Of a stretch of DNA of 64,000 nt, positions 20,000 to 61,456 are shown piece by piece. Under the pieces are notes generated by a model. The model was not told where the DNA came from, ran no database searches, and saw only the letters and a list, made by a program, of their open reading frames with translations. The stretch comes from Marinicella sp. (lineage in GTDB: Bacteria; Pseudomonadota; Gammaproteobacteria; Xanthomonadales; Marinicellaceae), in contig OZ246001.1 in NCBI GenBank assembly GCA_965230295.1, forward strand, positions 640,001-704,000, given 5' to 3'. Position 1 is the first letter of the stretch. Each line of letters opens with the position of its first letter. The position numbers were made by a program, and so were the translations under genes.

Positions 20000-21772
20000 T
20001 CAAAACTCTGCTTCAGTGATGTCCATTAAGGTCTGGGCACCCGTCATGATGGTGGCTTTCAATGAATGACATCTGGGTAGAATTTTATTGAAGTAAAAGG
20101 CAGCAGTTTTCTTTTTTCCACTGTAAAAATCTGCACCCAACTGACCTTTGTTGTTTTCTGCTGAGGCATACATTTGTGCCCAGAAATAGGCCAGGACCAC
20201 ATAGCCAGACAACATCAGGTAATCCACTGATGCAGCACCCACTTCGTCTGGATTCTGCATGGCTTGACCAACGATGTGTTGTGTCACCTCTTGCCACATA
20301 TTGAGGTAACTTTGTAAATCATCATTCAACGGTGTGTTGTTGTCGTTGATGAAGGCCTGAATCAAATCAGCTATTTCACCCAATTGGCCTTTTTGCATCA
20401 TCAACATTTTACGCCCTGTCAGGTCAAGTGCCTGAATGCCGGTTGTGCCTTCATATAAGGTGAAAATCTTGGCATCACGGTGCCATTGTTCCTGGCCATG
20501 TTCACGGATGTAACCGTGTCCACCGTAAACCTGAACACCATAATTGGTGGCTTCCATCGCGACTTCGGTTAAAAATGCTTTGATGATGGGCGTTAAGAAT
20601 GCCAACAGTTGTTCTGCTTTTTGCACCTCATCAGCATCCTGACTGTGTTTGATCACTTCAATTTTTTGACCCACAAAATAAGCCATCGCACGGTTACCTT
20701 CGGCAAAGGCTTTTTGAGTCAACAACATGCGTCTGACATCGGCATGAACGATGATTGGGTCAGCCGGTTTATTGGGTAATTTAGGTCCTGTGGCAGAGCG
20801 CATTTGTAAACGGTCTTTGGCATAGGCCAAAGCATTTTCATAGGATGCTTGGGTGGCTGACAAACCTTGAATGCCGGTGTTTAAGCGTGCGCCATTCATC
20901 ATGGTAAACATGATTTTTAAACCATCATTGCCTTCGCCGATCAAATAACCTTTGGCATCATCAAAGTTCATCACACAGGTGGCCGAGCCATTCAAGCCCA
21001 TTTTGTGTTCAATACTCGCTGCTGCCAATGAATTGCGTTCACCCACTTCGTTGTTTTCATTCAACATGAATTTAGGCACCAAAAACAAAGAGATGCCCTT
21101 GGTCCCTTTGGGCGCATCCGGCAATCTGGCCAACACCAAATGAACGATGTTGTCTGCCAAATCATGCTCACCGGAGGTGATGAAAATTTTGGTACCTGTG
21201 ATTGCATAGAGCTTATCGTCAAGCGGTTTTGCCGAGGTGTTCACCAAACCCAAATCTGTACCACAGTGAGGCTCGGTCAGACACATCGTACCTGTCCATT
21301 CACCGGTGGTTAATTTGGGTAAGAACTGCTGTTTATGTAAGTCAGAAGCGAAATGCTCAATCAATTCCCGGGCACCATGGGTTAATCCCGGGTAGTTAGA
21401 CCAACCTGGACAGTAATAAGTGTTGAGCTCGCCCAAAATCAACTGCAACCAATAACTCAAACCTTGGCCACCATATTCAGGGTCACCATCCAATGAAGCC
21501 CATCCAGATTCGCAATAGTCTTTATAAAGTTGTTTAAAGCCATCTGGTGTGGTCACAGTATCGCCTTCATGACGACATGCCTGCTCATCGGCATTGCGAT
21601 TTAGGGGGCCTGCATTTTCATGCAAAAACTTTGAGGCTTCTTCCACAATGGTCATGAATGTTTCGGCATCGATCTCTTCATGCACACCGAGGTTTTGATA
21701 ATGAGAAGTGAGGTCAAGCACTTCATCGGCTATGAACTGAATGTCTTTAATTGGTGCGGGTATATTGGCCAT
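20000..21772 (-). CDS. acyl-CoA dehydrogenase (about 590-aa class)
   Basis: MCLTEPHCGTDLG, GTKIFIT, EHKMG, QVYGGHGYI, YEGTTGIQALDL. Confidence 0.93.
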   Translation of the reverse strand: MANIPAPIKDIQFIADEVLDLTSHYQNLGVHEEIDAETFMTIVEEASKFLHENAGPLNRNADEQACRHEGDTVTTPDGFKQLYKDYCESGWASLDGDPEYGGQGLSYWLQLILGELNTYYCPGWSNYPGLTHGARELIEHFASDLHKQQFLPKLTTGEWTGTMCLTEPHCGTDLGLVNTSAKPLDDKLYAITGTKIFITSGEHDLADNIVHLVLARLPDAPKGTKGISLFLVPKFMLNENNEVGERNSLAAASIEHKMGLNGSATCVMNFDDAKGYLIGEGNDGLKIMFTMMNGARLNTGIQGLSATQASYENALAYAKDRLQMRSATGPKLPNKPADPIIVHADVRRMLLTQKAFAEGNRAMAYFVGQKIEVIKHSQDADEVQKAEQLLAFLTPIIKAFLTEVAMEATNYGVQVYGGHGYIREHGQEQWHRDAKIFTLYEGTTGIQALDLTGRKMLMMQKGQLGEIADLIQAFINDNNTPLNDDLQSYLNMWQEVTQHIVGQAMQNPDEVGAASVDYLMLSGYVVLAYFWAQMYASAENNKGQLGADFYSGKKKTAAFYFNKILPRCHSLKATIMTGAQTLMDITEAEF

Positions 21773-21929: not shown

Positions 21930-22570
21930 TGAATTCACGGAAAGCTGCTAAGCAGTTTGACCCGCCGAGCCGGTTAGGCAAATCATGCAATCATGGCGAT
22001 TTTGCAAAGCAAAGAAGCCTTGATGTAATGATTGATTAGCCGTGAGCTTTTGTTATAGCGGCCGCTATCGCTCCTAGCTATCGCGGCAGACCTACATCCA
22101 TGTAGTCACCTCTGATACCGGCATCCTGCCTCCTCAGAGGACTTACTTCCATGTAAGCCAATCAGAGGCGAAGAGAATAGCCAATGAGCATATGGTGATT
22201 TGACGAAGTCAAGAAACCTTATGTGAATGGCGTTATAGCACAGGCAATGAAAGTTGGGCGGTTTTATCGAAGATAAAGAAGCCCGATTTGAATGCCGCAG
22301 TGCGTGCGAGGTAGCAAGTCTTGTTCGCCTCGGCAGCTACCGCATCGATCCCCAGGACGGGGTGAATGCAGAGAATTGTTGGGAACAATTCCTGCCTGCT
22401 ATCGCTGCATACTTACATCCATGTAAGCAGTCGTTTTCACTTTTGTCTGGAACAGACATGCAGTGCGAAGCAACTGCTCAGACAATAGTCTGTAAAGGTC
22501 GGTTTATTTGCGCAGCAAATATGAAGACCTGTCAGACCATGAACCAGAATGAAGCCCCAAGAACATTCCT
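21930..22570. repeat. mosaic of nested short palindromic/hairpin elements, including the right part of a MITE-like element
   Basis: Three CTTACATCCATGTAAG-type palindromes (22092, 22142, 22412); four GRT/GAA hairpin modules; 24-bp identity and a shared terminus with the 61.2-kb element. Confidence 0.8.
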
Positions 22571-22572
22571 TT

Positions 22573-23697
22573 TTAAAATGACTTGAGCGCTGACAAAAGT
22601 GCTTGATTCACCAGATCAATCCCGGCATTGTTGAAATGTGTTGGATCTCCAAAATACTGGCACGATTTTTTATCGGCAAACAAATCACGCAAGTCGATTA
22701 ACTTAAAATTTGGGTGATCATCAAAAGCGGCAATGATTTGTTGGGTAATGATTCCCGCATTTTGCGGTTTGTAGATGTAATCATGTGACTCATGTTCTGG
22801 CAACAACAACAAAACAAAATCTTTATTTTGTTGCAAGACATGGTCAATCAAAGTCGTCCAATTCTTGATCAATTGTGCCTGATTTTTCACCGGAGGCACC
22901 GGTAAATTTTTAGCGGCCCTCAGTTTTGCTATCGGGGTGCTGCAACTGCGATGTATAAAACTGAAGCCATCTAACTCAGTCACTGTGTGATCGATCACAC
23001 GGGTACTTTGAATGCAATCATCGATGGTTTTTAAAGGGTGTGCACACAGGTCATCTTTAACTTCTTTTTTGAAATTCAAAATGGCATCAATTGAGCCTTT
23101 TCTATTGGCGTATCTAATCCTGTTAAACCTGAATTTCGGGTTGTTAATGAATGCTTTTATGTCTGCAAAGTAAGTGACCCATGCCAACGAATAAAAGTGT
23201 CTTAACCACTCGTCATAAGGATGCAACGGCCGATAATTATCAAAATCCATGAATGCTTTGAAAGGCCATGCAACCTTGTATTGCTTATTCATATAGCTGT
23301 AATGAGCAAAGCCGTTTTCACTGATGCCAAGCATCACGCCTTGAAGTGAAGACATGTTCGCCATTGACCAGTCAATGGTGGTTTGGATGGACACAAAGTT
23401 AGCACTGCCAAATGACATTCGGGTGTGGACCAAACCTTGTTTCTGGCGTAACGCTGCAACATGTTGGTGGTTGATGCCCCAGTCCACCCTTGAATCGCCC
23501 ACTGTAATCCAGTTGATTTGATCAAGACCCTGGGACTCAATGGCTTTCAATCTATAGGTGACATCTCCTAAAAAAGATTCAGGCTTAACCCATTTGTCAT
23601 ACCACCCCACTCTGAGCATGATTTCGGTGATTAAAAACAAGCCCAGCAACACCACCCAGGGTAACCAGAATTTTTTATGTTTAAAAAATGACCACAT
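22573..23697 (-). CDS. membrane-anchored SGNH-hydrolase-like partner of the MBOAT protein
   Basis: N-terminal TM, GDSR (block I Ser), C-terminal DPTH (DxxH); directly downstream of the MBOAT gene. Confidence 0.65.
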   Translation of the reverse strand: MWSFFKHKKFWLPWVVLLGLFLITEIMLRVGWYDKWVKPESFLGDVTYRLKAIESQGLDQINWITVGDSRVDWGINHQHVAALRQKQGLVHTRMSFGSANFVSIQTTIDWSMANMSSLQGVMLGISENGFAHYSYMNKQYKVAWPFKAFMDFDNYRPLHPYDEWLRHFYSLAWVTYFADIKAFINNPKFRFNRIRYANRKGSIDAILNFKKEVKDDLCAHPLKTIDDCIQSTRVIDHTVTELDGFSFIHRSCSTPIAKLRAAKNLPVPPVKNQAQLIKNWTTLIDHVLQQNKDFVLLLLPEHESHDYIYKPQNAGIITQQIIAAFDDHPNFKLIDLRDLFADKKSCQYFGDPTHFNNAGIDLVNQALLSALKSF

Positions 23698-23698
23698 A

Positions 23699-25108
23699 TC
23701 AGAACTGGAAATACATGAATGATTCGGCTTCCTGCGCACCAAAAAACACCAACAACAAGAGGAACAGTGATTGCCAGGTGACGTATGTCATGGTGCCCAT
23801 TTGGGTACAACGTTCAGCAAAACCATAATTAAAAGTCACTTTATGTAGCACCATTAAACCAACGACCAACGGGAACCCGAAACCATAAAAATCACTCAGT
23901 CTAACACCACCACTCATGGTAAAGATGTTTTCAATCATTTGAGTGCTTTGAGAAAAATCTTCCGCCCTGAAGAAAATCCACGCAAAACACACCAGATTAA
24001 AGACCAACATCCACTTCAATAACCTGACCCACTTAAGCTCTAAATTCCAAGATAAGGCCGGGTATTGTGCCAGTTTTCTTTCAATGGCAAGGTACACCCC
24101 ATGTAAAACACCCCACACGGCAAAGTTCCATGAAGCGCCATGCCATAAACCGCCCAAAAACATGGTTAAAAATAAATTTCTTTGCGTTTTCCAAGACCCC
24201 TTTCTGTTACCACCCAGGCTGATGTAAAGGTAATCTCTCAACCACCTAGATAAAGTCATGTGCCAGCGTCGCCAGAAATCCTGCACAGATAAGGCCACAT
24301 AAGGGTGATTGAAGTTTTTAGGAAACTGGAAGCCCAACAACAAGGCCACACCAATGGCAATGTCGGTATAGCCCGAGAAATCAAAATAGATTTGAAAAGC
24401 GAATGCATACACGGCAATCAGGGTCGTGATACCGCTCACACCTTCAGGATCATTGAAAACCGGATCTGCAATCAGGGCCAAATTATCAGCAAACACCACT
24501 TTTTTCACCAAGCCCAAAGTGATGATGAACACCCCTTTTTGCGCCATGTTAAAACTGAAGTGGCGTTTTTCATCAAGCTGTTGAAAGAATTCGGAGGCCC
24601 GTACAATTGGACCTGCAACCAGCTGAGGGAAAAATGAAACAAACAAAGCATAATCTGAAATTTGATGCCTGGGCGTGAGTTCTTTTCGATAAATATCGAT
24701 TGTGTAACTCAGACTTTGAAAGGTATAAAATGAAATACCAACCGGCAACAAAATATCTATGGCTGCCAACTGGTAATCATAACCAGTTGCCGCCATCACC
24801 TGATTGGCGCTGTTAAACACAAAATTGATGTATTTAAAGAACCCCAATATACCCAGGTTAACCAATAAGCTGATGTTTAAATATTTTCTGGGGTTATCGG
24901 CTTTGAAACACTTCAAACCGATGACGTAATCGGCACAGATGGTGACATAGATCAGAATCAAATAGGTCCAGTTCCACTGTCCATAAAAGAAGGCACTGGC
25001 AGCAACTAAAAACCAAATTTCCAGCCTTTTTGAATAAATCCGACACAATGCACTGACCAGCAACACCACAACCAGAAAAACAAAAAAGTCGACACTGTTA
25101 AAAAGCAA
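23699..25108 (-). CDS. MBOAT family O-acyltransferase (AlgI/DltB-like)
   Basis: LPVGISFYTFQ, FFPQLVAGPI, DFSGYTDIAIG, FWRRWHMTLSRWLRDYLYI, GLWHGA, FMYFQF. Confidence 0.94.
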   Translation of the reverse strand: MLFNSVDFFVFLVVVLLVSALCRIYSKRLEIWFLVAASAFFYGQWNWTYLILIYVTICADYVIGLKCFKADNPRKYLNISLLVNLGILGFFKYINFVFNSANQVMAATGYDYQLAAIDILLPVGISFYTFQSLSYTIDIYRKELTPRHQISDYALFVSFFPQLVAGPIVRASEFFQQLDEKRHFSFNMAQKGVFIITLGLVKKVVFADNLALIADPVFNDPEGVSGITTLIAVYAFAFQIYFDFSGYTDIAIGVALLLGFQFPKNFNHPYVALSVQDFWRRWHMTLSRWLRDYLYISLGGNRKGSWKTQRNLFLTMFLGGLWHGASWNFAVWGVLHGVYLAIERKLAQYPALSWNLELKWVRLLKWMLVFNLVCFAWIFFRAEDFSQSTQMIENIFTMSGGVRLSDFYGFGFPLVVGLMVLHKVTFNYGFAERCTQMGTMTYVTWQSLFLLLLVFFGAQEAESFMYFQF

Positions 25109-61178: not shown

Positions 61179-61206
61179 AGCAGGAGAATTGTTGACCGAT
61201 CAAATA

Positions 61207-61371
61207 AGGAATGTTCTTGGGGCTCCATTCACTTTTGTCTGGAACAGACATCCGAAGTGAGCAAACGCGAACTTGAGGTAAAATTAGAGTTAGAAGATGC
61301 TGGTTTTTTTGTGCAACAAAAAAGAAGGCATTTCTAACCATTCTCCAGAATGAAGTCCCAAGGGCATTCCT
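61207..61371. mobile_element. 165-bp MITE-like element with imperfect 24-bp terminal inverted repeats, flanked by TA
   Basis: TA|AGGAATGTTCTTGGGGCTCCATTC ... GAATGAAGTCCCAAGGGCATTCCT|TA (20/24); partial related copy at 22436-22570. Confidence 0.7.
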
Positions 61372-61456
61372 TACTATCTGACTTGAGGATAAGAAAGTGG
61401 TGGTCATCTGAGGTTAAACTTCTGTAAAATGAGGTGATTCAATCAAACATAATCAC

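Follow-up and report, generated by a model that had tools for sequence, protein, structure and literature searches.

What kind of genetic unit carries the small, strand-specific hairpins that recur in the chromosome of Marinicella sp.? The question is raised by a 64,000-nt stretch of this chromosome (assembly GCA_965230295.1, contig OZ246001.1, positions 640,001 to 704,000; hereafter the window), in which five hairpins with different stems share an internal loop of GRT opposite GAA. An earlier note, made from the letters of the window, had described them as a recurrent module and suggested either a recognition site for an enzyme acting on single-stranded DNA (ssDNA), of the HUH transposase or tyrosine recombinase type, or a protein-binding motif in a structured RNA. 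We find that four of the five hairpins lie inside a 633-nt element in a gap of 800 bp between two minus-strand genes. This element is the largest form of a modular, dispersed family with a conserved multi-helix fold, and it is present or absent as an exact unit between close strains. The features of the window copy are collected in Table 1.

The five hairpins (21995-22019, 22194-22218, 22256-22284, 22496-22530 and 61297-61331) read letter for letter as first described, all on the + strand. We searched with a descriptor that requires, in order, an outer stem of 3 bp or more, G[AG]T, an inner stem of 5-9 bp, an apical loop of 3-5 nt and GAA, and that accepts G.T pairs. In the 4.0-Mb host genome it matches 146 times, 75 on one strand and 71 on the other. 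Eight control descriptors with altered letters in the internal loop give 10 to 33 matches in the same genome, and 10, 11 and 16 matches turn up in three dinucleotide-preserving shuffles of it, so that the motif is much commoner than chance would allow. The stems are highly diverse: there are 67 distinct sequences among the 146 matches, with outer stems such as GGC/GCC, GCC/GGC, GTTAC/GTAAC, AATTGC/GCAATT and AGGGTTGC/GCGGCCCT, and the inner stems are equally variable. Across these varied stems the letters G-R-T-T-T ... A-A-G-A-A do not change. The conserved core of the hairpin is therefore longer than first noted, with a U.G wobble that closes a 2x2 purine loop. A strand-neutral scan of the genome found 139 hairpins, of which 41 fall outside the subfamily of the 633-bp element; several of these 41 are in tandem arrays of 104-122-bp units built to the same cassette grammar (see below). 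Crude open reading frames (ORFs) contain 13 of the 139 hairpins and the remainder are intergenic.

The remark in the earlier note that apical loops are mostly GNA triloops extends to the whole genome. Three-nucleotide loops occur in 43 of 53 distinct hairpins that bear the core, 24 of them GNA, and the triloops are mostly closed by C-G, chiefly as C-GAA-G or C-GNA-G. The sequence C-GNA-G forms an unusually stable DNA mini-hairpin, while structured RNAs favour tetraloops. Among 60 distinct cassette hairpins the stems hold 584 Watson-Crick pairs, 56 G.T pairs and 16 A.C pairs. The module is thus recurrent and under selection for pairing on one strand, as had been proposed.

The limits of the element in the window are given by two observations. 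Coverage by other copies in the genome climbs from 1 to above 60 at 21939 and drops again at 22571. A second sequencing run of the same study (X2), whose contigs differ from the window by scattered single-base changes, contains a contig in which 21939 is followed immediately by 22573, so that exactly 633 nt are skipped and nothing stands in their place. This contig measures 164 nt, 119 nt to one side of the joint and 45 nt to the other. The empty site in this close strain is GAATTCACG|TTAAAATGAC, and the inserted piece, GAAAGC...CATTCCTTT, is exactly 633 nt. The empty site shows no target duplication, and the absence of microhomology at the joint speaks against slippage. This exact presence or absence at strain level indicates that the hairpin module belongs to something that behaves like mobile DNA. 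Beyond the strain, a covariance-model search of 23 relatives found the element nowhere within 1.5 kb of the orthologous gene, and the upstream neighbour seen in the window differs in other species.

BLAST with the window element gave 78 matches in the genome, a single contig of 4.008 Mb, including full-length copies, and near-identical copies (95-98%) are scattered over the whole chromosome; clustering of the matches gave 103 loci. Left and right ends could be paired in 61 cases; the smallest size is 149 bp (14 copies) and the largest 633 bp (7 copies). The smallest form is a core of about 150 nt, and larger forms add hairpin cassettes to it at fixed places. Copies of 215 bp, for example, carry a 66-bp cassette with the hairpin GTTAC-GGT-TTTGCC-AAT-GGCAAA-GAA-GTAAC. 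The cassettes share a grammar, GGCA-AUGAA-stem-[outer stem-GGU-UUU..AAA-GAA-outer stem]-stem-UGAA-UGCC, which includes a second internal loop of tandem G.A pairs. As an observation apart from the dispersed copies, the genome also holds tandem arrays of three to six near-identical units of 104-122 bp (1488810-1489180, 2890150-2890850, 1313040-1313404, 2177482-2177726 and 2499664-2499959), each unit with one GGT/GAA hairpin and a GGTTGG...CAGAG junction; overlapping tandem matches to the covariance model described below occur in genomes G008 (contig 50) and G015 (contigs 12 and 19) as well.

To describe the fold shared by these copies, we aligned 18 core copies from seven subfamilies of the genome (alignment A1) and built a covariance model (R1) on this alignment. 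RNAalifold predicts 41 pairs in A1, with compensatory changes in 15, arranged in five helices. P1 is the 5' hairpin of the core. P2 consists of six variable pairs that flank an invariant GGUUGG ... UCAGAG junction, and P3 is a short hairpin, often with tandem G.A pairs; P2 and P3 together make up one long hairpin with the junction at its middle. P4 is a long-range helix between CAUGUUC and the GAACAU in the conserved right end. P5 is the 3' hairpin, which is enclosed by the pairing of CAUGUUC...GUGG in the 3' domain with the right end, and it carries a G-R-U/G-A-A type loop like that of the cassettes. As the right end pairs within P4, its conservation is structural and not that of an enzyme-binding terminal repeat.

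The fold was then examined in 43 aligned copies from three genera (alignment A3). Standard pairs fill 92.7% of the cells, against 74.7% in shuffles, and the observed value was reached in none of 500 shuffles; changes on both sides are seen in 32 of the 41 pairs. The covariation score is 0.489, compared with 0.196 for shuffled alignments and 0.06-0.08 when the partners are slid by one to three columns. In genome G033, which belongs to another family, the copies alter nearly every stem and keep the pairing. The core fold is thus strongly supported by compensatory change.

The same alignments connect the core with the cassette hairpins. Junction columns 42-45 and 61-64 are invariant in A1, and the corresponding positions in A3 (columns 51-54 and 73-77) are UG in 40 of 43 copies, UA in 42, GC in 42 and GU in 33. 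The GGUUGG/UCAGAG junction is the cassette motif itself, 5'-GGUU/AGAR-3', with a U-A pair, a U.G wobble and two purine-purine oppositions. In G024, a genome outside the genus, the 3' hairpin is GCC-GGT-TTTCGCCT-GCA-AGGCGAAA-GAA-GGC, a textbook example of the motif, which implies that the motif is the core 3' hairpin of the family and not an ornament. The GRU/GAA loop is the recurring motif of the whole family.

The pairs that deviate from Watson-Crick geometry identify the strand that folds. In addition to the excess of G.T over A.C among the cassette hairpins, the core alignment contains 162 G.T and 21 A.C pairs, about 8:1, and 89 G.T against 21 A.C once the positions where G.U is the rule are left out. 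As G.T far exceeds A.C, the + strand of the window is the folding strand. When the 633-nt copy was folded with DNA parameters, both strands were much more stable than shuffles (z -7.2 for the top strand and z -5.6 for the bottom strand); with RNA parameters the + strand is the more stable in 32 of 43 copies.

The covariance model finds full-length matches in 22 of 24 genomes of the genus and none at all in the other two. The copy numbers are 88 in the genome of the window, then 83, 81, 47, 25, 20, 18, 13 and smaller, and between species of the genus they range from 0 to 83. Genome sizes are similar despite this contrast, as seen for G003 and G018 (0 copies) beside G019 and G021 (80 or more). 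Among 151 sampled genomes of the order there are matches in 14, which fall in 3 of 64 genera; outside the genus these are in G024 (6 matches) and G033 (16 matches, the best at 79 bits). The model matched nothing in 150 genomes drawn from other families of the class, and a distant-mode search of plasmid and phage collections with a 634-bp query gave no match either. In an Rfam scan of the window there was no match at the gathering score; at E values up to 10 the scan returned only SNORD47 (E 8.1) and MESTIT1_3 (E 2.8), which are at chance level. There are no tRNA or tmRNA genes in the window. A search of the full-text literature, with ISfinder outside its reach, yielded no account of repeats in this genus or of such an element.

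The ends of the element are sharp and the flanking sequences are unrelated to one another. Terminal inverted repeats are absent, as GAAAGCTGC... at one end and ...ACATTCCTT at the other bear no inverted relation, and there is no target duplication of 2-5 nt at any offset in the 61 end pairs (the best 3-mer occurs in 4 of 61, against 1.3 expected). On the left, 50 of 65 ends have a C four nucleotides ahead of GGAAAG, and the three intervening bases vary and are rich in A/T; in other genomes the left flank has the C in 24 of 33 copies and the G in 21 of 33. Taken with the empty site, this pattern identifies C-NNN-G as a feature of the target, and the flank at 21935-21939, being retained in the empty site, lies outside the inserted DNA. 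The right flank begins W-W-T, and the flank pattern is weak overall. Two candidates for a function at the right end were rejected: a poxvirus-type topoisomerase site, TCCTT, which is not conserved in G033 or G024, and an outward promoter formed with the frequent TATAAT of the right flank, for which the right end lacks a -35 element.

Element ends lie within a few bases of a stop codon more commonly than anticipated. Among ends that face the 3' end of a gene, this holds for 10 of 36 on the right and 8 of 33 on the left. This could reflect a target preference, for TAA-like A/T-rich triplets, or selection. Copies between divergent genes are depleted (8 of 58).

The orientation of the copies follows replication. 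The GC-skew minimum at 1,719,421 and dnaA at 1,721,237 mark the origin, and the skew maximum at 3,857,364 marks the terminus. Relative to these points, 42 of 58 complete copies and 76 of 103 loci (~73%) carry the folding strand as lagging-strand sequence; crude gene calls lie on the leading strand in 60.5% of cases. The upstream gene points the same way as the copy in 33 of 58 cases, and the orientation is independent of the flanking genes. The bias is alike in the four classes of gene context and is therefore an effect of replication and not of transcription. Passages of PMC3971601 treat orientation biases of this kind as intrinsic to the transposition mechanism, with the leading strand favoured by IS200, IS200/IS605 and IS607 and the lagging strand by IS91 and ISL3, and place the active strand of IS200/IS605 on the lagging-strand template. 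The bias of our family would fit joining into the nascent lagging strand, or the preferential loss of copies that present the better-folding strand on the exposed template.

We searched for an enzyme that might mobilise the family. The earlier note had advised looking for a transposase or integrase gene flanked by the same module: there is no such gene, and no pair of left and right ends lies 0.9-10 kb apart on the same strand. TnpB (PF07282), reverse transcriptase (PF00078) and IS110 (PF01548) were not found in the genome by searches whose controls gave matches; searches for Y2 (PF04986) and RRXRR (PF14239) were blank, and the control genomes were equally silent. The sole Y1 HUH transposase is a RAYT-like protein of 187 aa (39.9 bits) encoded outside the window (L019, 1300-1863). 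Its gene is flanked by hairpins of another kind (GTTGAC-TTCA-GTCAAC, GTCGAC-TGAA-GTCGAC and GGTGAC-...-GTCACC), not by GRT/GAA modules, and these probably form a separate, classical REP family. Similar hairpins, GGAC-TTCAG-TCC, were seen near some copies of the element.

The presence of this enzyme class does not follow that of the element. Of the 151 genomes of the order, 112 have Y1_Tnp, most of them without the element, and Y1_Tnp was not found in G021 (81 copies; 99% complete), G024 (100% complete), G033, G015 or G013. With the RAYT protein of the genome itself as query, an ortholog was found in one of five element-rich genomes. The neighbours of the six copies in G024 are ordinary genes, among them those for a two-component system, transporters and DsbC. 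The interpretation in the earlier note is thus right in part: the hairpin is a strand-specific module, selected for its structure, of something mobile, but it flanks no HUH or tyrosine enzyme gene and Y1 does not co-occur with it.

We propose that these repeats are a new family of non-coding elements mobilised in trans, in which the conserved single-strand fold is the substrate of a strand-transfer system linked to replication; our confidence in this is evenly balanced. On this proposal the fold would act as ssDNA, and a trans-acting strand-transfer enzyme would recognise the repeated GRU/GAA purine loop with its U.G closure. The enzyme would cut the element precisely and join it 3' of C-NNN-G during replication, so that the top strand would usually end up with the sequence of the nascent lagging strand. 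The tandem arrays and the gain of cassettes would be secondary and arise by recombination. We also entertain, more doubtfully, a system of an undescribed kind, in which a folded single strand of about 150 nt, recognised by its repeated G-R-U/G-A-A loop, is joined without duplication 3' of C-NNN-G into the nascent lagging strand by an enzyme outside the known ssDNA transposases, or in which the element is a scaffold RNA for an undiscovered partner.

Several points weigh against the trans-mobilised ssDNA proposal. Precise mobility is read from a single empty site in one contig at a depth of 5.8, where insertion and precise excision both fit. The strand bias is known from a single genome, and its direction places the folding strand mostly on the leading-strand template, the reverse of IS200/IS605 as described in passages of PMC3971601; a simple model in which the hairpins are exposed on the lagging-strand template thus misfits unless a further assumption is made. 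Alignment A3 was fitted to the model, so that the covariation counts depend on it, and copies within one genome are related and not independent. The conserved G.U, the tandem G.A pairs and enlargement through hairpins set into loops would suit a structured RNA no less well. Finally, the searches described above found no mobilising enzyme.

An alternative is that the fold is RNA, which we regard as possible, if less probable than the ssDNA proposal. Here the copies would be, or would lie in, transcripts whose loops bind protein or build tertiary structure, for instance as a scaffold or guide RNA for an undiscovered partner or as an mRNA stabiliser or processing signal, with the DNA mobilised in trans. 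The strong covariation of a multi-helix fold across genera, the U.G and G.U positions of the invariant junction, the recurrent tandem G.A motifs with growth by inserted hairpins, and the stability of the + strand under RNA parameters are all as expected of an RNA. The earlier note had raised a structured RNA, and the conserved multi-helix fold bears this out; the hairpins are spread over about 100 loci, so they do not constitute one lone RNA gene. In the 633-bp copy and in one core copy there is no promoter or terminator signal above shuffles. The orientation, unrelated to the flanking genes, is head-on to replication at most loci, triloops dominate the apical loops, and Rfam offers no match in the window. 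The genome also lacks detectable reverse transcriptase, TnpB or IS110 partners. This last point separates the family from transposon-borne RNAs. The omega RNAs of HEARO/IscB and TnpB and the bridge RNA of IS110 are structured, about 150-200 nt long, and occur also as copies without an ORF; like them, our elements would be structured non-coding parts of mobile elements, with hairpins that have conserved internal loops. However, besides the missing PF07282 and PF01548 matches and the lack of an Rfam match, the loops of the element are constant while its stems vary, the reverse of what is expected of guide loops. Two known RNA motifs were considered and rejected: a K-turn, because the 3-nt bulge is lacking, and the sarcin-ricin loop, whose consensus does not fit. 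The triloops, the absence of promoter and terminator signals and the replication-linked orientation make ssDNA somewhat more probable than RNA.

The remaining explanations keep the repeat as DNA and differ in how it spreads. That it is a passive repeat of the REP/BIME, ERIC or BOX kind, multiplied by recombination or duplication alone and kept for a DNA-level function in the host (nucleoid or gyrase binding, fork handling) or for punctuation of transcripts, seems to us unlikely. Such a repeat would be expected to show the modular mosaic build and the tandem arrays, the intergenic location, the ends that abut stop codons and the depletion between divergent genes that we observe; it does not account for the exact presence/absence polymorphism with a joint free of microhomology, for copies 95-98% identical chromosome-wide, for copy numbers that swing from 0 to 83 within the genus, or for sharp ends in unrelated flanks. 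Mobilisation by the RAYT of the genome, as a REP/REPIN, or derivation from IS200/IS605 as a palindrome-associated element, is very improbable. There is one Y1_Tnp gene, and the element is hairpin-rich, has neither inverted repeats nor target duplications and has a replication-linked orientation; against this stand the other type of hairpin that flanks the RAYT gene, the distribution of Y1_Tnp, which does not track the element across genomes, the dissimilar end hairpins P1 and P5, the bias opposite to that given for IS200/IS605 in the passages cited, and a left flank that is merely C-NNN-G and no fixed tetranucleotide. That the hairpins are chance structures, ordinary terminators or integron attC-like sites is scarcely credible. 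Intergenic hairpins are common, and the empty site, G|TTAAAA, resembles the integron crossover G|TTRRRY. Yet matches to the descriptor are 9 to 15 times as frequent as in shuffles, the hairpins lack a T-run behind them, the outer stems are unconstrained in sequence (67 variants) with no conserved RYYYAAC/GTTRRRY boxes, and the copies are dispersed and not in cassette arrays.

Comparison with known systems places the element by its form. REP sequences, as described in parts of PMC3116915 and PMC3184786 and as generally understood, are short imperfect palindromes with an asymmetric mismatch that marks the strand, dispersed or clustered. The element shares with the REP/REPIN/BIME-RAYT systems such imperfect palindromes and strand-marking mismatch, the dispersed copies with tandem clusters, the intergenic location, the lack of inverted repeats and target duplications, and a presumed action as ssDNA. 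It differs in being a fold of about 150 nt with several helices, one of them long-range, where a REP is one hairpin or an inverted doublet, and in that the RAYT of the genome carries other hairpins and does not co-occur with it. IS200/IS605 and their palindrome-associated transposable elements (PATEs) likewise lack inverted repeats and duplications and have a one-sided short motif, subterminal hairpins and a replication-linked bias. In a PATE the subterminal hairpins of the two ends are similar and bound by one TnpA, and the target is a fixed 4-5 nt directly 5' of the left end, whereas here P1 (AAGCTGC/GCAGCTT) and P5 (TTCACTTTTGT/ACAAAAGTGAA) are unrelated and the target is the degenerate C-NNN-G; TnpB was not found in the genome, TnpA (Y1) does not track the element, and the sign of the orientation bias differs from that in the passages of PMC3971601.

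Of the repeats defined by form, BOX of the pneumococcus and ERIC/IRU of enterobacteria are modular and non-coding, with inverted ends and a TA-type duplication. Fixed end modules, variable internal hairpins at set places, strong predicted structure, about a hundred copies per genome and a mobilising agent that is not known are common to them and to our element. There is no sequence relation, the element has no inverted ends or TA-type duplication, and its fold is backed by covariation across genera. By form, and not by homology, the element belongs with the mosaic interspersed repeats of the BIME, BOX and ERIC kind. With IS91 and other rolling-circle elements (Y2 HUH) it shares the absence of target duplication, a target motif at one end, unlike ends and tandem copies. 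A lagging-strand bias is also common to both, as far as passages of PMC3971601 describe it; the bias of IS91 is defined by its gene, and the element has no such gene. A classical miniature inverted-repeat transposable element of the DDE type would have terminal inverted repeats and a target-site duplication of fixed length, and the element has neither.

Table 1. Features of the 633-nt element, its surroundings and its rearranged relative, in window coordinates.
Feature	Position	Strand	Basis or content
Full-length modular structured element, 633 nt	21940-22572	+	Empty-site contig; coverage by other copies
Left flank, putative target motif C-NNN-G, here TCACG	21935-21939	+	Retained in empty site
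P1, 5' core hairpin, 7 bp, 3-nt loop	21942-21958	+	Compensatory changes in 7/7 pairs, 43 elements
GGTTAGG, 5' half of GGUUGG/UCAGAG junction	21972-21978	+	Near-invariant alignment columns
Hairpin cassette 1, replaces short P3 hairpin	21977-22041	+	Holds hairpin 21995-22019
ATCAGAG, 3' half of conserved junction	22161-22167	+	Alignment
Hairpin cassette 2, GCCA-ATGAG-stem-[GGT GAT ... GAA ACC]-stem-TGAA-TGGC	22180-22231	+	Holds hairpin 22194-22218 plus outer tandem-G.A loop
Hairpin cassette 3, GGCA-ATGAA-stem-[GGGC GGT ... GAA GCCC]-stem-TGAA-TGCC	22243-22296	+	Holds hairpin 22256-22284
5' arm of long-range helix P4, TTGTTC (core consensus ATGTTC)	22321-22326	+	Pairs with GAACAT 22561-22566; RNAalifold columns 91-96 with 152-157, compensatory changes in 6/6 pairs (A3)
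5' arm of core hairpin P5	22434-22459	+	Comparison with 149-bp copies
Fourth hairpin, within 3'-domain extension	22496-22530	+	Direct reading
Right-end module GAATGAAGCCCCAAGAACATTCCTT	22547-22571	+	98 genome matches; 3' arms of P4 and P5 outer stem
Acyl-CoA dehydrogenase gene	20000-21772	-	Left neighbour of the element
389-aa ORF	22573-23742	-	Right neighbour of the element; no Pfam match
Rearranged relative of the element	61206-61372	+	Carries hairpin 61297-61331 and right end 61348-61372

Within the window copy, the outer stem of cassette 3, AGTT/GATT, requires two G.T pairs on the + strand. The 5' arm of P5 is reused here in a small GTCTG-GAA-CAGAC hairpin, followed by a 92-nt extension; in other copies 22454 is joined to 22547 with AAAGT between. 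Three further small hairpins (22092-22105, 22142-22157 and 22412-22427) have the form CTAC/CTTAC-(A/T)TCCAT-GTAG/GTAAG with a conserved UCCA-containing loop, and two such UCCA-loop hairpins fall in a 28-nt internal direct repeat (22077-22104 and 22398-22425, 89% identity). ORFs within the 633-bp copy have no Pfam match.

The fifth hairpin belongs to the relative at 61206-61372. There a fragment of the right end, in inverted orientation (61206-61238), meets a forward 3' domain exactly at the palindromic stem of P5. This 3' domain bears an extension unlike that of the 633-nt copy, and the hairpin at 61297-61331 is within it. Fusion at the P5 palindrome gives this copy a false appearance of terminal inverted repeats, and the junction at 61206-61238 looks like the product of a strand switch or inversion at a hairpin. 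As to the genes beside the 633-nt element, the nearest relatives of the acyl-CoA dehydrogenase are in Marinicella, with identity up to 88%. The right end of the element abuts the stop codon of the 389-aa ORF, which overlaps a gene for an MBOAT (AlgI-like) O-acyltransferase by 44 nt (region 22573-25108).

The usual interspersed repeats of bacteria are simple hairpins, or miniature elements with inverted repeats for which the enzyme can be guessed, and the family described here differs from them on several counts together: its conserved fold, its precise ends with presence or absence between strains, the absence of target duplication beside a degenerate motif, an orientation bias reversed from that of IS200/IS605, the well-understood ssDNA case, and the lack of any enzyme candidate in our searches. 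The covariation of its multi-helix fold is as strong as that in a curated RNA family. With at least 80 copies in several genomes and none in others of the same genus, it offers an abundant and defined substrate for finding a new strand-transfer enzyme or a new RNA-protein system. The elements account for several of the large "empty" intergenic gaps in these genomes, and they are probably the cause of many contig breaks in draft assemblies of the genus.

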